Source: Bacillota bacterium (GTDB taxonomy: Bacteria; Bacillota; Clostridia; Christensenellales; CAG-138). Taken from it: 47,043 bases of DNA. Position 1 is the stretch's first letter, and each line of letters opens with the position of its first letter. The notes below the pieces were generated by a model, which searched no databases, had not been told where the DNA came from, and saw nothing but the letters and a program-made list of their open reading frames with translations. Location of the stretch: contig JAEEYN010000152.1 in assembly GCA_016288175.1 (NCBI GenBank), positions 1 to 47,043 of the forward strand. The letters are read 5' to 3'. The position numbers and the translations under genes are program-made. This document shows positions 18,231 through 47,043 of this stretch, piece after piece.

Positions 18231-18746
18231 ATGAAGCATGTGATAATTTACACCGACGGCGCGTGCTCGGTAAATCCCGGTGTCGGCGGTTGGGGCGCGG
18301 TTCTGATCTACGGCAAACGCCGGCGCGAGCTTTCCGGTTCCGAGGCTCAGACCACGAACAACAGAATGGAACTGACTGCCGTGATCGAGGCCGTCAAAGC
18401 ACTGAATCAGCCGTGCGAGATCGATGTGTTTACGGACAGCAGCTATGTCTGCAATGCGTTCAAAAACGGCTGGATCTGGAACTGGCTCAGAAACGGCTGG
18501 AAGACCGCGAATAAACATCCGGTCGAAAATCAGGATCTTTGGCAGGAATTGCTTGCATGCTTAAAGATCCATAAAGTCAACTGGAATAAAGTCAAAGGTC
18601 ACGCGGACAACGAATACAATAATCGCTGCGATAAACTTGCGACGACCGCGGTTGCCGAGCTGAAAAAGAAAATCGAAACCGAAAAGCAGGAACGCGCAAA
18701 AGATTCAAAGAACAAAAGCGATGAATCCGGCGCTGAAACGGTTTGA
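18231..18746 (+). CDS. rnhA: Ribonuclease HI with a Lys/Glu-rich C-terminal tail
   Basis: 171 aa. Has IYTDGAC, TNNRMELTAV, TDSSYV and KVKGHADNEYNNRCDKLA, which give the DEDD catalytic pattern of RNase H1. Confidence 0.9.
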   Translation: MKHVIIYTDGACSVNPGVGGWGAVLIYGKRRRELSGSEAQTTNNRMELTAVIEAVKALNQPCEIDVFTDSSYVCNAFKNGWIWNWLRNGWKTANKHPVENQDLWQELLACLKIHKVNWNKVKGHADNEYNNRCDKLATTAVAELKKKIETEKQERAKDSKNKSDESGAETV

Positions 18747-18813
18747 GCCAAGGATGCCCAAACTAGGCCGAAAGCATCCGGACAAAAAAATATATTACTG
18801 TTATTCCGTATTC

Positions 18814-18847
18814 AACTATTCGCAAAACTTGTCTTTTGCGAATAGTT
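18814..18847. repeat. Perfect 14-bp inverted repeat with a 6-nt spacer (AACTATTCGCAAAA-cttgtc-TTTTGCGAATAGTT)
   Basis: Read directly from the sequence. It lies between rnhA and the Xer-type recombinase gene and overlaps that gene's predicted -35 and spacer. Confidence 0.9.
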
Positions 18848-18857
18848 ATGTTATAAT
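18829..18857 (+). promoter_or_regulatory. Sigma-A-type promoter for the tyrosine recombinase gene (TTGTCT-17 nt-TATAAT)
   Basis: -35 TTGTCT at 18829-18834, a 17-nt spacer, and -10 TATAAT at 18852-18857. It sits about 45 nt upstream of ATG 18904. Confidence 0.55.
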
Positions 18858-18903
18858 GAAAGAGGTGTCTCCCACCGCATTTCCGAACTCTTCCGGAGGT
18901 TTT

Positions 18904-20052
18904 ATGAGTGATGACTATACGGCCGAACGCTCGCGCATTTATACGCTTAAGCTGCGCGAAGTTCTCAGCGAGCTGCCATCCGTCTGCAGCGAATTCTTCA
19001 GAGGCATCGAAACGACCACTACGCCGCTGACACGTTACGGTTATGCGCTCGACCTTCGGCTTTTCATGCGATACTTGATCTGCACGGACCTTTGCAAAAA
19101 CGTTGAGTCGATCAAGGCGATCGATTATCGGATACTCGATTCCGTAACGCCCGATATTGTTGAAGGTTTTCTCGAATATATATCGCTTTATCCCGAAGAG
19201 AATTCCGATGCGGACAGTTCGGCCGATGTCAGCGCCGTTTTCGTTTCAAACGGCGAGCGCGGCAAAGCGAGAAAGCTCTCTTCCCTGCGTGCATTCTATA
19301 AGTATTTGTATAAAAAGGGACGCATCAACTCCAACGCTCCGTCGCTTGTCGACGCTCCGAAACTTCACGAGAAAAGCATAATCCGTCTTGAGCCGGATGA
19401 GATCGCAAAGCTGCTCGATCTTGTTGACAACGGCGAAGGGCTCACCGACGCCCAGAAGCGTTACCATAACCAAACAAAAATCCGCGACGCTGCGATCGTT
19501 ACGCTTTTCCTCGGCACCGGGATGCGTATCAGCGAGCTTGTCAGCATCAATACCGATGACATCGATTTCGAACAAAACGAAGTCCGGATCGTCCGCAAAG
19601 GCGGTAATCAGGATATCCTCGTTTTCGGCAGCGAAGTTCGCAGCGCGCTGATCGATTACAAGCTCCGCCGGGACGGAACGGAAACAGCGCCGGGTCACGA
19701 AAAAGCGTTCTTCCTTTCAATGCAAAGGAAGCGAATCACAGTGCGTGCCGTTGAACAGCTTGTTAAGAAGTATGCTCAGCTTGCGGCTCCTCTCAAAAAA
19801 ATCTCCCCGCATAAGCTTCGCAGCACATACGGTACTTCACTTTATCGTGAGACCGGCGATATTTATCTCGTTGCGGATGTGCTCGGCCATAAGGACGTCA
19901 ACACGACCAGAAAGCACTATGCCGCGCTTGCGCAGGAACGCCGCAGGACCGCTGCCGAGGTCATCAAGCTGCGTGAGGATCCCGCCGTTCCCGATCTTGA
20001 AGCAAAAACAGAAGCCGTTCCCGATCATGGAAACGGCTCCGATGAGAATTGA
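18904..20052 (+). CDS. Site-specific tyrosine recombinase, XerC/XerD-like
   Basis: The ORF track starts at 18721 and overlaps rnhA. GGAGG precedes ATG 18904 (MSDDYTAERS...). Catalytic set: GTGMRISE (Arg), HKLRSTYGT (His-x-x-Arg), LGHKDVNTTRKHY (His...Tyr). About 382 aa. Confidence 0.85.
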   Translation: MSDDYTAERSRIYTLKLREVLSELPSVCSEFFRGIETTTTPLTRYGYALDLRLFMRYLICTDLCKNVESIKAIDYRILDSVTPDIVEGFLEYISLYPEENSDADSSADVSAVFVSNGERGKARKLSSLRAFYKYLYKKGRINSNAPSLVDAPKLHEKSIIRLEPDEIAKLLDLVDNGEGLTDAQKRYHNQTKIRDAAIVTLFLGTGMRISELVSINTDDIDFEQNEVRIVRKGGNQDILVFGSEVRSALIDYKLRRDGTETAPGHEKAFFLSMQRKRITVRAVEQLVKKYAQLAAPLKKISPHKLRSTYGTSLYRETGDIYLVADVLGHKDVNTTRKHYAALAQERRRTAAEVIKLREDPAVPDLEAKTEAVPDHGNGSDEN

Positions 20053-28741: not shown

Positions 28742-28770
28742 ATTATACACGAAGACCGGGGCTGTTTCAA
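28742..28770 (-). promoter_or_regulatory. Near-consensus sigma-A promoter for miaB (TTGAAA-17 nt-TATAAT on the minus strand)
   Basis: Minus strand: -35 TTGAAA (28770-28765), a 17-nt spacer, and -10 TATAAT (28747-28742). It lies in the 66-nt gap between the recombinase-like stop and the miaB ATG. Confidence 0.65.
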
Positions 28771-28778
28771 CCGCGGCT

Positions 28779-30116
28779 TCAGTCAAAATCGAATCGGGCC
28801 GTTCCCAAACCGGGCAGTTTTATCTCCGCATTCGACCCTTCAACGGATACTTTGGAGACAATGCCGTTCAGGAGGAAACGCTGTTCGCGCCGCGAAAGCG
28901 ACCAAAGCTTCTTCAGCCGTTCAAAATAGGCTTCAACAGCGTTTTCGGCATTGTCCGTCAGCGCGAAAAGATGCTTCATGAACAAAAGATCGATCCTAGC
29001 AAGCATTATTTCCGCATTGATCCTGTCAAAAGCTTCAAGTTCCTTCCGCGTTTGCGGTCCCTTCAGCGTTGAATAGCGTTCTGCCTTTTTCTCGTTAAGC
29101 TCATCTATCAGTTCGGCGTCTTTTCCGGCTTTCGCTTTCGATTCCGCGCAGCGTCTTTTCGCAAACTCGATGCAGCGTTTCTTCATCGAATCAATATGCG
29201 GGCTCAGCTTGGAACAGATCGCCGTTGTTGCCTTTTCATCGAACGGAACCGCGGGGATAAAGTGCTGCCGGGGAGGCAAACAATAAACCTCTTCCCGTCC
29301 GTTTCCGCTCCTTAATCCCGGCCGCAGTGTACCTTTTTCGCTGCAGTTCAGTCTTTTAAAGAGGAATTCGTAGTTGTTGTTGTAATACCGAAGCTCGGAT
29401 TTGAGCTTCTCCCTTGCCGCGAAGCAGACCTGCGGGCTGACGATGACCGGATAACCGAGCTGTGTTTCATCAAGCCCCGCATAGCGATCGTTGAGAATGA
29501 TTTCCGGTACCCTGCTCCTTGCAATGCTGTTTTCCTGAGGAAAATCCTGCTCGATGTTCCTTGCGGTTTCCGAAGAAGTCAAGCCTTCGGCGCAGTAACG
29601 AAAAACCTTGCGAACGATCTCCGCTTTCGCTTCGTCGATCTTGATCGCATCTTCTTCGTATCTGTATCCGTAAACCGGTCTTCCCGCGGATTTCTTTGCG
29701 GTACATGCGATGTTGTTTCGGTCCGGTTCAACATCGTCTGTTCCGCAAAAGCGTTTCGCATTCGAGATCCAGCGCAACAACAAATCGGTTTCGGTCGGCA
29801 TTCTTTTCGGCAGGAACCTGTATCCGAGTTTTTCAAGGTAATAGATCAGGCCTTCGACATTATAGCTTTCGGCCGAAAGCCAATCGTAATCAGTAAGGAT
29901 AGTCGAGCGATAACCCGTGCTTTCGGCTAGATCGGCAAGTTTCAGCAAAGCATAAGGAGGTTTGTCCTGCCTGTCATACAGCACCGATGCAGCGGAAAGA
30001 TCAAGACGCGCGGCAAGTTCCCTCAGCGTTTTCTCACGGTTGTTTGCCTCGCTTTGCTCGCAGGCTGCGAAATAGATTATCGATTCTTTCGCATGGCCTT
30101 TTCCCGCTGCTTTCAT
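28779..30116 (-). CDS. Large-serine-recombinase-like protein with a degenerate catalytic domain
   Basis: The ORF track extends to 30320 and overlaps the upstream gene. GAGGAA precedes ATG 30116 (MKAAGKGH...), giving 445 aa. The Recombinase-domain signature is GRPVYGYRYEEDAIKIDEAKAEIVRKVFRYCAEGLTSSETARNIE. A coiled-coil region and the typical C-terminal beta-hairpin tail (IVSKVSVEGSNAEIKL) are present. The N-terminal resolvase-like segment reads IIYFAACEQSE where Y-x-R-x-S-T-x-x-Q is expected. Confidence 0.7.
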   Translation of the reverse strand: MKAAGKGHAKESIIYFAACEQSEANNREKTLRELAARLDLSAASVLYDRQDKPPYALLKLADLAESTGYRSTILTDYDWLSAESYNVEGLIYYLEKLGYRFLPKRMPTETDLLLRWISNAKRFCGTDDVEPDRNNIACTAKKSAGRPVYGYRYEEDAIKIDEAKAEIVRKVFRYCAEGLTSSETARNIEQDFPQENSIARSRVPEIILNDRYAGLDETQLGYPVIVSPQVCFAAREKLKSELRYYNNNYEFLFKRLNCSEKGTLRPGLRSGNGREEVYCLPPRQHFIPAVPFDEKATTAICSKLSPHIDSMKKRCIEFAKRRCAESKAKAGKDAELIDELNEKKAERYSTLKGPQTRKELEAFDRINAEIMLARIDLLFMKHLFALTDNAENAVEAYFERLKKLWSLSRREQRFLLNGIVSKVSVEGSNAEIKLPGLGTARFDFD

Positions 30117-30127
30117 AGTTTCGTTCC

Positions 30128-31435
30128 TCAATACAGTGCCGACCAGAGCTTTTCGGCTGATCTTTGTGCGCGGAGTTTGATATCGCTTCCCGAGATGCCT
30201 ATTAAATCTCCGTCCAGCATCAGCAGTTTGCCGTCTGTCATAACCGTTCTGCACTTTCTTCCGCTGCAGTTTAAAACAACATGCTGTTCGGCATTGTATG
30301 CGTTCATCGGCGTATAGCAATCATAATCTATGACGATTATATCGGCTTTTGCACCGGGTCTGATAACGCCGACCGTTTCACCGAAAAGCTTCGAAGCTGT
30401 TTCCGCGTTTGCTTCAAAAAGCATCCGTTCCGCGATCTTCGGTGAATACATGCCTGCTTCACTGCGGCCGAACTCTCCGGAAGCCGCTCTTGCTGATTCG
30501 AGCATATCAAATCGGGATGCGCCTGCGCTCAGTCCCGGAACATACCGGCAGTCCGCACTCAGGCGCGCTTTGCCACACTCTTCAGCGAATAAAGGTACGA
30601 CTCTTGTGCCGGTCTTTGCCAATGCTTCAAACTCGCCATTATCGAAACGGCTTGCCGCCGCGATCGTATTCTCTCCGGCGATTCCGGAATCGATCATCCG
30701 CTCCGCAGGAGTTTTTCGATATTTCCTTAAGGAATTGCCGATATTGAATTCGGAGTTCTCCAAAAGCACATGGAAACCCGTTTTGTCTTCCCAAAACTCG
30801 CGGTAGCTTGAAAGGTTATCTCCGTTCGTGCCGTCCGCAATCCTTAAGCCGAATGCAGGATGCATCCTCGAATCGCGAACGGCAGCGCAGTAGTTATAAA
30901 AGTTCAGATTTTCCTCGACTGCCGCCTGTTGGAGCCTCCACGGCTCGTTTTCATCAACTTCGCAGCATACTGAGGCGCGAATGCCGATCTCCCTGAATGC
31001 CGACGCTATAGTCTGAAGGCTCCCGCTTGTGCAGGACGGAGAAGAATGATACTCAAAAACAGAGGTGATCCCGTTTCTGATGCTTTCGACCGCAGCAGCA
31101 GCCGCGGCATTACGCAGATATTCAAGATTCAAGCCGGCTTTCAGCTTCTTTTGCCTGTCTGCCGCAGCATAACCCGAGCGTAAACCGGCGCTCTGCGCGC
31201 CGCCGGCAAGCCCGATTGAGTAGATGTCTGTGCAGCGTGAATGAAGGTTGATCAAACCCGGCATGATGAGCCCACCGCGTGCGTCGATCGTCTCCGCCTT
31301 CGGGTAATCTGCGAACAGCTGCTTTTCATCACCGACGGCAATGATGCAGTCGTTCGAAACCGCAACAGCACCGCGGTCAAGATACGGTATCTGTTGATCA
31401 TGAGTTATTATCCTGCCGTTTTTGAAAAGGAACAT
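30128..31435 (-). CDS. SsnA-like amidohydrolase-fold protein lacking the canonical metal ligands
   Basis: 435 aa. It is collinear with my recalled SsnA/chlorohydrolase layout (MPGLIN.H..., GITSVFEYHSSPSCTSGSLQTIASAF, GAKADIIVIDY). However, HxH reads LHSRC, the H-x-H..E strand reads FHVLLEN, the next His position reads AAAS, and the Asp strand (LGTDG) reads LSAGA. Confidence 0.7.
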   Translation of the reverse strand: MFLFKNGRIITHDQQIPYLDRGAVAVSNDCIIAVGDEKQLFADYPKAETIDARGGLIMPGLINLHSRCTDIYSIGLAGGAQSAGLRSGYAAADRQKKLKAGLNLEYLRNAAAAAAVESIRNGITSVFEYHSSPSCTSGSLQTIASAFREIGIRASVCCEVDENEPWRLQQAAVEENLNFYNYCAAVRDSRMHPAFGLRIADGTNGDNLSSYREFWEDKTGFHVLLENSEFNIGNSLRKYRKTPAERMIDSGIAGENTIAAASRFDNGEFEALAKTGTRVVPLFAEECGKARLSADCRYVPGLSAGASRFDMLESARAASGEFGRSEAGMYSPKIAERMLFEANAETASKLFGETVGVIRPGAKADIIVIDYDCYTPMNAYNAEQHVVLNCSGRKCRTVMTDGKLLMLDGDLIGISGSDIKLRAQRSAEKLWSALY

Positions 31436-31438
31436 ATC

Positions 31439-32338
31439 TCAGGTCATGAATTTCGGTTGGCTGTTCAGATACGTATCGCGAAAATGCTGGACCATTGTCG
31501 CAATAAACTCCGAGTTTGTCGGCTTGCCTTTCGAAGCGTCGACCGTATTCCCGAACAGATAATACTGCATATACGGACTGCTTCTTTCCCATGCGCTCTC
31601 GATCGAATAGCGCACTGCCTTTTCGACAGCGGCAGGAGAGGTTTTGGTGAGCTCGGCCGTGTACCTGTAGAGGGTATTGAGCCTGTTGTCCATTCCGAGC
31701 ACCTGCATATAGATGATGAGCTGCAGATAGCCCGTCCCCTTCTGCTTCGGGTCGAGACCGATAGGTTCGAGCAGTGTTTCGGTAATACCTTTGAGAAGGC
31801 GTTTATCCAGTTTGCCCTCGTTGAAGAAAAGGACGTCGCTGATGTAGCTTCTCATGTTCGAAAGCACTTCCTGCTCTTTTCTCGCAAGGAATTCGGAATA
31901 TGCATCGAACACCCGTTTCGCGCTTTCCTCAACGCTTTGCGAATACTCTATCATTCCGTCGATGCCGCAGCTTTCGCAGATGCCGGCGAGCGAAGCCGTT
32001 GATTTTTCGCAGCAGATAAAATAACGGATATCCATGCAGAACCTGCTCAGGCGCAGTTTCGAGATCAGCGTTATCGGATCGACATCCGGAAGCGTCTGAC
32101 TGATGATCACTGCATCCGGGATCCTCAAAACAAGATGAGGCCAGATCTCCGCACCGAGACGAACCGGCTCGTCGGTATCGAAATACCGGCCGAGCGCCGC
32201 ATTCAGGCAGCGGGCAAATTCTCTCTCCGTTTCGCCGCACGATGACTGCGGGTCCGACTCATGGCCGTCCTCACAGATTATCAGCACATACGGTTTTAGG
32301 CCGAAGTTATGTCCGTTCTTCGCTGCGGTCTTGCTCAT
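31439..32338 (-). CDS. Spo0A-like transcription factor: Spo0A C-terminal DNA-binding domain fused to a degenerate (pseudo-)receiver domain
   Basis: 299 aa. The C-terminal half matches Spo0A_C hallmarks (KGTGYLQ..., SPAAVEKAVRYSIESAW, KGKPTNSEFIATM). The N-terminal half has receiver-like topology, but the phospho-acceptor context reads PDAVIISQTLPDVD (Ser where Asp is expected), and the conserved Thr and Lys positions are also not recognisable. GGGAGG RBS, 21 nt after the htrA stop. Confidence 0.75.
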   Translation of the reverse strand: MSKTAAKNGHNFGLKPYVLIICEDGHESDPQSSCGETEREFARCLNAALGRYFDTDEPVRLGAEIWPHLVLRIPDAVIISQTLPDVDPITLISKLRLSRFCMDIRYFICCEKSTASLAGICESCGIDGMIEYSQSVEESAKRVFDAYSEFLARKEQEVLSNMRSYISDVLFFNEGKLDKRLLKGITETLLEPIGLDPKQKGTGYLQLIIYMQVLGMDNRLNTLYRYTAELTKTSPAAVEKAVRYSIESAWERSSPYMQYYLFGNTVDASKGKPTNSEFIATMVQHFRDTYLNSQPKFMT

Positions 32339-44157: not shown

Positions 44158-44631
44158 TTATTTGATTATAAGGTAAACAAGACCGACGATCACGGACGAT
44201 ATTATCCCATAGACGAGCACTGGGCCCGCAAACGAGAATAGCTGCGCGCCGACGCCGAGCACAAGGCCTTCACGCTTATGCTCCATTGCCGGAGAAACGA
44301 TTGAATTCGAAAACCCAGTGATAGGAACCACCGAACCTGCGCCGGCAAAAGTCCCGATGCGGTCATAAACGCCGATGCCTGTCAGAAGTGCGCCGATAAA
44401 GATCAGCACAATTGAAACAAAAGCGCCTCTCTCCTTTTCGCCGAATCCGAAAGCGATACTGCCGATATCGCCTATCAGCTGTCCGATGCAGCAGATGGCG
44501 CCTCCGACGGCAAAAGCCAAGATGCATTGCCGAAGCACCTTGCTTTTCGGAGCTTTTTTATTGACAAGCGCTCTGTACCGAGCGTGTTCAAATCGCTCTT
44601 CCGGCGTCAGTTTTCGATTCGTTTTATCCAT
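44158..44631 (-). CDS. spoVAC: Stage V sporulation protein AC
   Basis: 157 aa. It closely follows the SpoVAC pattern (FAVGGAICCIGQ, LTGIGVYDRIGTFAGAGSVVPITGFSNS, EGLVLGVGAQLF). GGAG RBS. Confidence 0.9.
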   Translation of the reverse strand: MDKTNRKLTPEERFEHARYRALVNKKAPKSKVLRQCILAFAVGGAICCIGQLIGDIGSIAFGFGEKERGAFVSIVLIFIGALLTGIGVYDRIGTFAGAGSVVPITGFSNSIVSPAMEHKREGLVLGVGAQLFSFAGPVLVYGIISSVIVGLVYLIIK

Positions 44632-44657
44632 TCTCTGCTCCGATCCCGCCCGATGCT

Positions 44658-44792
44658 TCAGCCTGCCATGACCAGTTTCGCGCCGTCGAAAGTCAGCTCG
44701 GCGCGCTGTTCTCCGGCGTTGATTGCGATCGCCGCAATGACTGCGATCAATAAAGCAATTCCCGCAAACAGCAATTTATGAAACTTCTTCAT
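44658..44792 (-). CDS. Candidate small membrane protein (44 aa), below the ORF-track cutoff
   Basis: My own translation of the minus strand gives MKKFHKLLFAGIALLIAVIAAIAINAGEQRAELTFDGAKLVMAG*. It has a basic N-terminus plus one hydrophobic helix. AAAGGA lies about 11 nt upstream. It fills most of the 214-nt gap between the sigF-like gene and spoVAC. Confidence 0.4.
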   Translation of the reverse strand: MKKFHKLLFAGIALLIAVIAAIAINAGEQRAELTFDGAKLVMAG

Positions 44793-44845
44793 TATCTTTC
44801 ACGTCCTTTCGGCTTTTGCTTTTATCTTGCGCAGCAGGAAGCTTT

Positions 44846-45394
44846 TTATTCGATTTGATCGTTTTGGCAAAACTTGTTTTTGAGCTTCTTCAAAGCGTTT
44901 TTTTCTGTTTTCGATACCGTCGGCTGCGAGACCCATAGCACAGCCGCCGTCTTTTTCTGCGTCAGTCCTCGAAAATACCGAAGGCAGATCACGGCTTTCT
45001 CGGTTTCCGAAAGTGTCTCCAGTCCCTCGCGCAGCTGCAGATTACGCAGAACTTTGGCTTCGTCATCATCAGCATCAACCGGAATGCAGATTTCGGTTCT
45101 TTCTTCAAGGCTGTCGACGGTCATCCGGCAGCTGAAGGCTGAGTTTTTTCGAAGCGCAGAGCGGATCTCGCCCTCGATATAGATGAACGCGAACGATGCA
45201 AACGGGACGTTCCTTTCCGCATCGTACTTCAGCCAGGCTTTCCAAAGCCCGAGCGAACCGTATTGAAACAGCTCGTCCTGCGGCATGCCCCGCCCGGCGA
45301 ACCTTTGCGCAACATATCTCACGAACGGCAGGAAGCTTTCCGCCGACAAAGGCCCGGCAGCGGCAGCGCTGCTGTTTTCGTTTTTTCCCTTCAC
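44846..45394 (-). CDS. sigF: Sigma-70-family sporulation sigma factor in the sigF position, unusually short (no recognisable region 3)
   Basis: 182 aa. Region 2 (DELFQYGSLGLWKAWLKYDAERNVPFASFAFIYIEGEIRSALR) and region 4 (LSETEKAVICLRYFRGLTQKKTAAVLWVSQPTVSKTEKNALKKLK) are clear. Only about 44 residues link them. GTG start with a GTGA overlap on the spoIIAB stop. Confidence 0.7.
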   Translation of the reverse strand: MKGKNENSSAAAAGPLSAESFLPFVRYVAQRFAGRGMPQDELFQYGSLGLWKAWLKYDAERNVPFASFAFIYIEGEIRSALRKNSAFSCRMTVDSLEERTEICIPVDADDDEAKVLRNLQLREGLETLSETEKAVICLRYFRGLTQKKTAAVLWVSQPTVSKTEKNALKKLKNKFCQNDQIE

Positions 45395-45819
45395 GCGTCC
45401 GCGCTCGATATCCGCTTTATCAGCCGAACGACCGTTCCCTCGGCGGGTTTCGAAAAGACCTCGACTTTATCCATGAACGCTTTCATCACGGCAAACCCCA
45501 TGCCGGACCTTTCCCCCTCCGGTCCTGTAGTGAAATACGGCTGCATCGCCTGTTCGATATCCTTGATCCCCCTTCCCCGGTCCTTGATCTCAACTGTCAG
45601 CAGATCCCCGCAGATACACATTTCGAGGGTTATGACGCCGTCGCCCATAGCGTAACCGTGTATGATAGAATTTGTGACTGCTTCGCTCACGGCTGTTCGG
45701 ACGTCCGCGAGTTCCTCCAGTGTCGGGTCAAGCGGCGCAATGAACGCCGAAACGGCGCTTCTTGCGAATGATTCGTTGACCGGTTTGCTCTGCATTTCGA
45801 TTTTGATGCGATTATTCAT
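45391..45819 (-). CDS. spoIIAB: Anti-sigma-F factor / serine kinase SpoIIAB
   Basis: 142 aa. Has the GHKL kinase motifs EAVTNSIIHG, DRGRGI and GMGFAVM. It abuts the spoIIAA stop. Confidence 0.93.
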   Translation of the reverse strand: MNNRIKIEMQSKPVNESFARSAVSAFIAPLDPTLEELADVRTAVSEAVTNSIIHGYAMGDGVITLEMCICGDLLTVEIKDRGRGIKDIEQAMQPYFTTGPEGERSGMGFAVMKAFMDKVEVFSKPAEGTVVRLIKRISSADA

Positions 45820-46134
45820 TCAGCTCACCTTATTTGTCAGTTTATAGATCCCTGCGATGCGGAGTATCTTCACGATGCTCTCGTTTGGATTGGCGATCCC
45901 TATAGTGCCGCCCCTTGCCGCCATCAGTTTATAACGTCCGAGTATAACGCCTATGCCGGAGCTGTCCATGAAGGTCACTTTGGAAAGATCGAATATGAGT
46001 TTCCGTACGCTCCTGTTCCTTCCGACCAGGCAGTCTATGCATTCGCGGATCGGTCCGGCGCTGTTTTGGTCGATCTCATCCTTCAGGAAGACCGTCAGTT
46101 CGGCGTCCGATATCCTGTAATTGAGCTTTATCAA
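45820..46134 (-). CDS. spoIIAA: Anti-anti-sigma-F factor SpoIIAA (STAS domain)
   Basis: The ORF track extends to 46320, but AAAGGAGA precedes a TTG at 46134, giving (M)IKLNYRISDAELTV... at 104 aa, the usual SpoIIAA size. The phosphorylatable-Ser motif FMDSSGIG is present. Confidence 0.85.
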   Translation of the reverse strand: MIKLNYRISDAELTVFLKDEIDQNSAGPIRECIDCLVGRNRSVRKLIFDLSKVTFMDSSGIGVILGRYKLMAARGGTIGIANPNESIVKILRIAGIYKLTNKVS

Positions 46135-46319
46135 TCGGGTTTCTCCTTTGCGCGTTAGTTCCGCAATTGAATACTCCTTCTTTGATGCTGTCTCCTGCAA
46201 AAGAAAACGGCGAATAAGAAAATGTTTTGTCTTATTGCAAAACAGGACAAAATAAGTTAAAATATTCTTTAGTAACAGCTGCGGCGCTTTGCCGCTCACG
46301 CAGGAAGGAGGAAACGGCA

Positions 46320-47043
46320 ATGGAGCGAAATGATTTCGTTTTCAACGGAGTCAACGGCTCGTGCAGCGTGCTGGTCGCAGGCCGTTTCTCCGAACTCGCG
46401 CCTTTTGTCCGCGAAGCGATCCGCGGCCGCAAAGCGCTTATACTGACGGATGAAACGGTTTCGGGCATCATTCTCGGCTCCGTCACCGAAGCCGTCAGCG
46501 ATCCCTCGGCAGAGCTTTTCTCCTTCGTTATCCGTTCCGGTGAAAAAAGCAAAAGCTTTGAAGATCTCGGCTCGATCCTGACCTGCATGGTCGAACGCTC
46601 ATTCGGCCGCGGAGACGTGATCATCAACCTCGGCGGAGGAATGGTCGGCGATATCGGCGGTCTTGCCGCTTCCGTCTATATGCGTGGGATCGATTACATC
46701 AATATTCCGACAACTCTGCTCAGCATGGTCGACAGTTCCATCGGAGGAAAAACGGGAATCGATTTCGCCGGGATCAAAAACGTTATCGGCACCTTCCGCC
46801 ATCCGAAACTCGTTGCGGACGCAACGGAGTTCCTTTCCTCGCTTTCCGAGCGCGATATCCGCTCCGGTTTCGGCGAGATAGTAAAATACCGTCTTCTAAC
46901 AGGCATGGATATCCCCGAAGGATTCGAATCAGGCAGCGCGGAAAAGCTTATCGCGAACTGTGCCGCCGCAAAATGGTCCTTCGTTATTGGCGACGAATTC
47001 GACAACGGCAAGCGCAAATTTCTGAATCTCGGCCACACCTTCG
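46320..47043 (+). CDS. aroB: 3-dehydroquinate synthase, 5' part (runs off the window)
   Basis: Not in the ORF track because it has no stop. My own translation gives MERNDFVFNG...INLGGGMVGDIGGLAASVYMRGIDYINIPTTLLSMVDSSIGGKTGIDF...FLNLGHTF, which is the AroB NAD/Zn-site pattern. GGAAGGAGG RBS. Confidence 0.88.
   Translation, partial: MERNDFVFNGVNGSCSVLVAGRFSELAPFVREAIRGRKALILTDETVSGIILGSVTEAVSDPSAELFSFVIRSGEKSKSFEDLGSILTCMVERSFGRGDVIINLGGGMVGDIGGLAASVYMRGIDYINIPTTLLSMVDSSIGGKTGIDFAGIKNVIGTFRHPKLVADATEFLSSLSERDIRSGFGEIVKYRLLTGMDIPEGFESGSAEKLIANCAAAKWSFVIGDEFDNGKRKFLNLGHTF

Follow-up and report, generated by a model that had tools for sequence, protein, structure and literature searches.

A family of large serine recombinase homologues lacking a complete catalytic set and the zinc site in a fixed chromosomal setting of uncultured Clostridia

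Known serine recombinases are active enzymes that act in phages, transposons and developmental excisions. The large serine recombinases (LSRs; A118/LI integrase, TnpX, SpoIVCA and CcrA) are the closest described systems to the protein analyzed here, which is encoded at positions 28779-30116 of the minus strand of contig JAEEYN010000152.1 (assembly GCA_016288175.1, a Bacillota bacterium of the Clostridia lineage CAG-138). The whole 47,043-nt stretch of this contig is referred to below as the window. The window protein has the same domain order as LSRs, is homologous to them over its full length and shares the hallmark residues of their recombinase domain, but it lacks the Ser nucleophile, the catalytic arginines and the Cys4 zinc site. 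In contrast to LSRs, the distal part of its helix alpha-E is replaced by a variable linker, and the gene lies in fixed housekeeping synteny with neither a mobile element nor att-like repeats (searched within 12 kb) beside it. We do not class the protein as a functional LSR because the defining catalytic and zinc-ribbon features fail.

Two other systems bear on what such a protein could do. Tn3 and gamma-delta resolvases are small serine recombinases that autoregulate at res and double as repressors, providing a precedent for the use of a serine recombinase scaffold in site-specific, DNA-binding regulation in which no strands are exchanged. Those resolvases are active and end in a simple C-terminal helix-turn-helix, whereas the window protein is of the LSR type and appears to have lost catalysis. 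TldR proteins are nuclease-dead, RNA-guided transcription factors derived from TnpB, and their function has been demonstrated. The shared concept is a mobile-element enzyme that is without catalysis, vertically inherited and retained for nucleic-acid binding; fold and chemistry are unrelated, and for the window protein we infer the function. What is new here, judged by our literature searches and by Pfam and NCBIfam, is a vertically inherited family, maintained by selection, that has the whole LSR scaffold and apparently none of the chemistry.

A full-length large serine recombinase scaffold

A first-pass annotation, made from the DNA letters alone, had recognized an LSR-like architecture in this protein and proposed aligning it to the Pfam Resolvase, Recombinase and Zn_ribbon_recom models. 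In that comparison Recombinase (PF07508) alone scored above its cut-off (22.6 bits against 21.1, amino acids 163-219), and neither Resolvase nor Zn_ribbon_recom matched the window protein. Among the 25 members of the family described below, PF07508 was matched by 18, Resolvase weakly by two relatives and Zn_ribbon_recom (PF13408) by none. NCBIfam gave a partial, weak CcrA match to the window protein, and a phmmer search of the PDB with the single window sequence returned nothing significant.

Comparison at the profile level gave homology over the entire length. When the 25-member family was aligned by hhalign with 18 bona fide LSRs, the match had a probability of 100% and an E-value of 8.5e-42 over 435 columns, covering residues 8-445, with the resolvase-fold N-terminal domain included as amino acids 8-125. 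The family profile also matched the C-terminal region of A118 integrase (4kis, E 3e-9, profile positions 147-444) and, weakly, TnpX, and amino acids 141-430 of the window protein matched the integrase family phrog_95 in PHROGs (E 1.4e-9). For the N-terminal domain alone, the best match was to IS607-family TnpA: the profile hit the catalytic domain of the IS607-type ISC1926 TnpA (6dgc) at positions 13-125 with an E-value of 2.4e-6, and the structural match to this family (6dgc, 6dgb) had a Foldseek probability of 0.97. TnpA differs from the window protein in that its DNA-binding domain is N-terminal, its catalytic Ser and Arg are kept and it has no LSR C-terminal domains.

An AlphaFold2 (AF2) model built from a two-sequence alignment was unusable, with a predicted local distance difference test (pLDDT) score of 46.5, and the 25-sequence alignment was used instead (pLDDT 86.9, predicted template modeling score 0.84). 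The resulting model runs from a beta-alpha resolvase-type N-terminal domain through a helical recombinase domain, a four-stranded beta region and a helical hairpin to a C-terminal beta tail. Foldseek matched it to the LSR-DNA complex 4kis (E 1.7e-6, probability 1.0) and to the serine recombinase catalytic domains 6dgb, 3ilx, 3lhk and 3lhf (probability 0.97-0.99). The helical hairpin of the model (residues 289-348 and 357-387, pLDDT >90) is aligned by the profile with the coiled coil of A118 integrase, and this is the region of lowest sequence conservation in the family (mean pairwise identity 0.15). The C-terminal tail motif SRREQRFLLNGIVSKV, which contains Glu411, aligns with FREKQLYLKSLINKI of A118 integrase; the two share E-x-x-x-(F/Y)-L, and E411 is invariant in all 25 family sequences. 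We conclude that the protein is a full-length LSR homologue that has kept the entire LSR scaffold, and the architecture read in the first-pass annotation is borne out by hhalign over the full length, by the PDB profile matches, by Foldseek and by the model.

Catalytic, zinc-binding and recombinase-domain residues

The catalytic residues R15, S17, R63, R91 and R94, which are invariant in the 18 real LSRs, served as the reference set for the hhalign alignment. There, Y15-F16-A17-A18-C19 of the window protein lies opposite the Y-x-R-x-S of LSRs, with Ala17 in place of the Arg of Y-x-R and Cys19 in place of the Ser nucleophile. DRQDKPP (48-54) lies opposite D-x-x-x-SG...RP and is four residues shorter, the loop Arg (RP) falling within the deletion. 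DYDWLSA (76-82) lies opposite x-x-D-R-x-x-R, with Trp79 for the Arg of D-R and Ala82 for that of x-x-R. The first-pass annotation had noticed an Arg-to-Ala and a Ser-to-Cys change in the motif IIYFAACEQSE and degenerate sites at DRQDKPP and DYDWLSAES; every one of these readings stands in the profile alignment.

The loss is common to the family, and no member carries the complete catalytic set. In the 23 sequences aligned at the nucleophile column, Ser occurs nine times, Glu four times, Ala, Asn and Gly twice each, and Cys, Leu, Gln and Lys once each. The single Cys belongs to the window protein; its closest relative, at 50% identity, has Ser. In the family alignment, with arginines numbered as in gamma-delta resolvase (R8, R45, R68 and R71), the R8 equivalent is Arg in 6 of 23 sequences and the R71 equivalent in two, and the R68 equivalent is Arg in none of the 24 aligned relatives. 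A semi-conserved family Cys (17/23) sits one residue before the nucleophile column, at the buried Val position of Y-x-R-V-S; by strand geometry its side chain would face the core, away from the active site. Active serine recombinases have a long helix alpha-E, which is the rotation interface and crosses the DNA. AF2 predicted this helix for residues 109-124 only, with pLDDT <50 for amino acids 127-139, and the linker of amino acids 126-145 that stands in place of its C-terminal half has a pairwise identity of 0.15.

The mechanically called open reading frame (ORF) on the minus strand spans 28779-30320 and begins with TTG. An ATG at 30116 is preceded, 8 nt upstream, by a GAGGAA ribosome-binding site (RBS), and the homologues begin at the equivalent position; we call the gene from this ATG, which gives a predicted product of 445 amino acids plus the stop. 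The TTG start was dropped: the extra 68 amino acids overlap the upstream gene (30128-31435) and contain no YxRxS-like motif. No alternative start or alignment that restores S-x-x-x-Q was found, the upstream extension running into the neighboring gene and the profile alignment fixing strand beta1. With all five catalytic positions substituted or deleted, the protein is very probably catalytically inactive, which had been the favored reading from the outset.

The zinc ribbon has fared similarly. In LI integrase the zinc ligands are C274, C277, C302 and C314 (PMC3783163). The corresponding region of the window protein (amino acids 246-292) retains beta-strands (256-288) in the AF2 model, and its only cysteines are Cys258 and Cys279, as expected from the earlier reading that the CxxC...CxxC ribbon was reduced to two isolated cysteines. 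Cys258 lies opposite the first zinc ligand in the alignments to LI integrase and other LSRs. In the HMMER alignment no ligand lies opposite Cys279, and hhalign places this residue in a stretch of poor alignment close to the third ligand. Judged by these alignments, three or four of the four ligands are gone. Each of the two columns holds Cys in 4 of 25 family members, and no ribbon Cys is conserved.

The recombinase domain, by comparison, is the most conserved domain of the family (mean pairwise identity 0.29). All five of its LSR-invariant residues (G150, F172, Y212, G214 and P223) are invariant or nearly so, and R169, R200 and R211 are conserved in the family. Directly before the first strand of the domain is a Gly-Arg pair, with G145 present in 22 and R146 in 17 of 25 sequences; in LSRs and in resolvase, the linker between alpha-E and beta6 touches DNA and matters for function (PMC3783163). 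In the ribbon-like region, P266 and Y278 are conserved. Y278 (conserved in at least 90%) aligns with Tyr295 of LI integrase, which makes a base contact to thymine methyls in the major groove (PMC3783163). On these residues a DNA-binding role is possible, and we put it forward tentatively.

Family, chromosomal context and selection

When 1.84 billion representative proteins were searched exhaustively with HMMER, 73 matched at E <= 1e-3, 23 of these at E <= 1e-10. About 25 full-length relatives (clusters at 50% identity) have 434-518 amino acids and are 17-50% identical to the window protein. A word-indexed search found two proteins with the single sequence, and with the family profile it returned mostly genuine LSRs together with four family members; it was the exhaustive HMMER search that revealed the family. 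Source records label the relatives 'hypothetical protein' or leave them unnamed, no Pfam or NCBIfam entry describes a dead-LSR family, and our literature searches on inactive or domesticated serine recombinases found no description of it. By these searches, the protein belongs to a small, previously undescribed family and is not an orphan beside a possible invertible segment.

In the window, the gene belongs to a same-strand array with gaps of 3-50 nt that runs through genes for a U32 peptidase, mutS2, a 2-thiouracil desulfurase, a response regulator, a histidine kinase, HtrA, a Spo0A-like regulator and an SsnA-like amidohydrolase to the recombinase-like gene. A promoter then precedes miaB, mutS, mutL and miaA. 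This miaB promoter (28742-28770, minus strand) lies just past the stop codon and is near-consensus, with TTGAAA, a 17-nt spacing and the extended -10 element TGTATAAT; all seven related loci that were aligned share the extended -10 promoter. Its presence indicates that the upstream transcription unit ends with the recombinase-like gene. Elsewhere the window consists of core chromosome, including ligA, pcrA, uvrB and uvrA, and GC content is flat across the locus at about 0.50-0.55.

Two chromosomal contexts were found in the family. The closest reference genome, the rumen metagenome-assembled genome RUG13931, was located by using MiaB as an anchor. In the branch that includes the window, every locus with a long enough contig has the order Spo0A-like gene, SsnA-like gene, recombinase-like gene and miaB-mutS-mutL-miaA, and this order is kept although the protein is 20-50% identical across loci. 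The SsnA-like neighbor is syntenic in loci L001-L004, L006 and L092. In the second, sister branch, the gene lies between a DUF885 gene and recX-birA or, in one lineage, a phosphate-transporter gene. In this branch the DUF885 gene and the family gene are 60 nt apart (L093, 5940-6000; L090, 6940-7000), and the gap contains a GC-rich hairpin with a T-run behind it (GCCGAG...CTCGGCATTTT). The hairpin resembles an intrinsic terminator, and the second-branch gene may have its own promoter in this gap. In Clostridia with a MiaB only 56-62% identical, no family member was found within 8 kb of miaB.

Signs of mobility were not found. A search for direct or inverted att-like repeats within 12 kb (24-36 kb) gave only chance-level matches of 14-28 nt, in line with the first-pass annotation, which had recognized none by eye. 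The window contains no tRNA genes, relatives were found neither in viral contigs nor in JGI metagenome contigs, and PADLOC defense models matched neither the protein nor three relatives nor its two neighbors. No active LSR was found in the 47-kb window or in the retrieved loci of relatives. We conclude that the gene is non-mobile and vertically inherited in fixed housekeeping synteny in uncultured gut and rumen Clostridia; the samples from which the family comes include pig gut and rumen.

One other recombinase gene lies in the window. At 18721-20052 (plus strand), after genes for RNase H and a nitroreductase-like protein and with no tRNA near it, a 443-amino-acid tyrosine recombinase (Pfam Phage_integrase, 2e-32) adjoins uvrA.

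Selection could be quantified in the sister branch, where two members of 456 amino acids (L093 and L090) differ by 143 synonymous and 131 non-synonymous changes. These give dS 0.75, dN 0.134 and a dN/dS of 0.18, and the neighboring genes recX and birA gave 0.13 and 0.18 in the same comparison. Purifying selection acts on the family, as shown in this branch. Even at 17% identity, all ORFs examined are intact and keep a near-constant length and domain order. Between the window protein and its closest relative, conservation is equal in the N-terminal and recombinase domains (0.56 each), and the confident, compact fold that AF2 returned from 25 sequences implies conserved structural constraints. 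We read the protein as fast-evolving but constrained, and not as a pseudogene.

Candidate roles and neighboring genes

We think it probable that the protein is an exapted ('domesticated'), inactive LSR scaffold that now serves, most likely, as a non-catalytic DNA-binding or DNA-bridging dimer. A non-enzymatic job has probably been taken on, because the intact gene is kept at a fixed chromosomal position despite the loss of the cutting residues. The constrained N-terminal domain would mediate dimerization, and the recombinase domain would bind DNA together with the Gly-Arg arm, giving a non-catalytic binding or bridging factor whose coiled coil would be free for protein-protein contacts. If true, this would be a clean prokaryotic case of a site-specific recombinase turned non-catalytic, and a natural experiment on the question of which parts of the LSR (N-terminal fold, recombinase domain and coiled coil) have functions separable from catalysis. 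Domain-based pipelines will mis-annotate such proteins as 'recombinase family protein', integrases or mobile-element markers.

Several observations weigh against this explanation. For the recombinase domain, net charge has a family mean of +2.9 and a value of -2 in the window protein, compared with +4.9 in real LSRs; for the ribbon-like domain the family mean is +0.6, compared with +4.8. The zinc site is also lost. No candidate binding site was found, the intergenic region up to miaB showing only the miaB extended -10 promoter over seven loci. In the window's own lineage, strain-level comparison yielded four synonymous and two non-synonymous changes, which is consistent with purifying selection and, at only six substitutions, underpowered. 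The window's branch is also very fast: identity of the protein falls to 27% at a MutS identity of 79%, and to 20% at 79% for both MiaB and MutS, which could reflect relaxed constraint. Lastly, family membership and the column counts hang on a MAFFT alignment at 17-50% identity.

A fuller version of the exaptation reading would make the family chromosomal DNA-binding or bridging regulators in spore-forming gut and rumen Clostridia, with the window's branch placed in a three-part module beside a phosphorylation-independent Spo0A-like regulator and a pseudo-amidohydrolase. Taken as a whole, we consider this rather doubtful.

The rapid divergence of the window's branch (20-27% identity, against 79% for MutS and MiaB) would also be expected of a decaying relic, that is, a stranded mobile-element recombinase drifting to loss. 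The missing catalytic and zinc residues, the two adjacent genes whose functional sites are degenerate too, and the absence of the gene within 8 kb of miaB in Clostridia with a MiaB 56-62% identical point the same way. A relic nevertheless seems improbable, given ORFs that stay intact and steady in length and domain order at identities as low as 17%, a sister-branch dN/dS equal to that of the housekeeping neighbors, a confident compact fold from 25 sequences and a dead N-terminal domain as conserved as the recombinase domain.

The retained coiled coil and N-terminal dimerization fold could instead mean that the protein is a partner or decoy of an active LSR elsewhere in the genome, such as a SpoIVCA-type sporulation excisase, modulating it, much as a recombination directionality factor would, through a heterodimer or the coiled coil. 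Sporulation genes (spoIIAA-like, a sigma factor and spoVAC) are present at 44-46 kb of the window, and the LSR coiled coil is a known control point: published work describes it as governing synapsis and directionality and as a target of directionality factors (PMC3783163; PMC5499577, PMC11722253). This too is improbable, since the window and the retrieved loci hold no active LSR, no region is less conserved than the coiled coil (0.15), and inheritance is vertical in two fixed housekeeping contexts with no sign of coupling to a mobile element.

A further alternative is that the three adjacent proteins form a module controlling Spo0A-type transcription without a phosphorelay. The Spo0A-like regulator matches Pfam Spo0A_C (2e-21) and the Spo0A DNA-binding domain in the PDB (3e-12), and its N-terminus has no match to Pfam Response_reg. 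Compared with B. subtilis Spo0A, it has Ser (IISQTLP) for the phospho-accepting Asp in 5/5 orthologues. The SsnA-like amidohydrolase scores 251 bits in NCBIfam SsnA against a cut-off of 444; its HxH metal motif reads H-S-R, and LLEN takes the place of the HLHE seen in relatives. Five of six orthologues have lost HxH, which L003 keeps, and this neighbor is probably a pseudo-enzyme. Each of the three proteins, then, lacks a key functional residue, and the genes are adjacent with gaps of 3-11 nt, syntenic in all loci of the window's branch with a long enough contig and jointly fast-evolving (identities of 69/60/50%, 56/44/32% and 43/33/27% across loci). Set against this, co-location in a long same-strand array is weak evidence of interaction, and the sister branch adjoins DUF885 and recX, with no Spo0A-like gene in the retrieved flanks; the family function therefore cannot require the module partners. 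We regard the module as decidedly improbable, and any joint action of the three degenerate proteins as speculation. A Spo0A-like regulator without its phospho-acceptor beside sporulation genes may bear on the control of sporulation, or its remnants, in uncultured Clostridia.

Least probable by a wide measure is a recombinase still active through Cys19 or another residue: Cys19 lies exactly at the nucleophile position and the closest relative has Ser there, but the Cys is confined to the window (the first-pass annotation had likewise called a Cys nucleophile unsupported), 13 of 23 sequences have non-nucleophilic residues, none of the arginines needed to activate the scissile phosphate is present, AF2 does not predict the distal part of helix alpha-E, neither att-like repeats nor a mobile context was found, and a Ser-to-Cys change at the nucleophile inactivates resolvase.

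Table 1. Predicted parts of the recombinase-like gene and its two conserved neighbors, in window coordinates
Feature	Positions	Strand	Basis
Whole gene, probable catalytically dead large serine recombinase homologue	28779..30116	-	ORF list, RBS, hhalign, AF2
N-terminal resolvase-fold domain, aa 10-125	29742..30089	-	6dgc profile match, Foldseek, column alignment
Codon TGC, Cys19 at the nucleophilic Ser position	30060..30062	-	Sequence and alignment
Linker, aa 126-145, low confidence and poorly conserved, ending at the Gly145-Arg146 arm	29682..29741	-	AF2, conservation
Recombinase domain, aa 146-245	29382..29681	-	Pfam PF07508, hhalign, conservation
Zinc-ribbon-like beta region without zinc site, aa 246-292	29241..29381	-	Model strands, 4kis alignment
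Long antiparallel coiled coil, aa 293-390	28947..29240	-	Model helices, A118 integrase alignment
C-terminal helical and beta tail, aa 391-445	28782..28946	-	A118 integrase alignment, model strands 422-443
SsnA-like amidohydrolase, conserved upstream neighbor	30128..31435	-	NCBIfam SsnA, PDB and orthologue alignments, synteny
Spo0A-like regulator, conserved neighbor	31439..32338	-	Pfam Spo0A_C, PDB Spo0A DNA-binding domain

The sporulation genes of the window form a cluster at its right end (44158-46320, minus strand) that encodes a SpoIIAA-like protein with a STAS domain, a sigma factor and SpoVAC, suggesting an organism that forms spores or did so recently. The related locus L003 (1885-2986 and 4858-5550) carries cotJA, cotJB and cotJC, and a sigma-factor gene lies divergently beside its Spo0A-like gene. 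Given this cluster and the cotJ genes of the relative, the organisms are probably spore formers.

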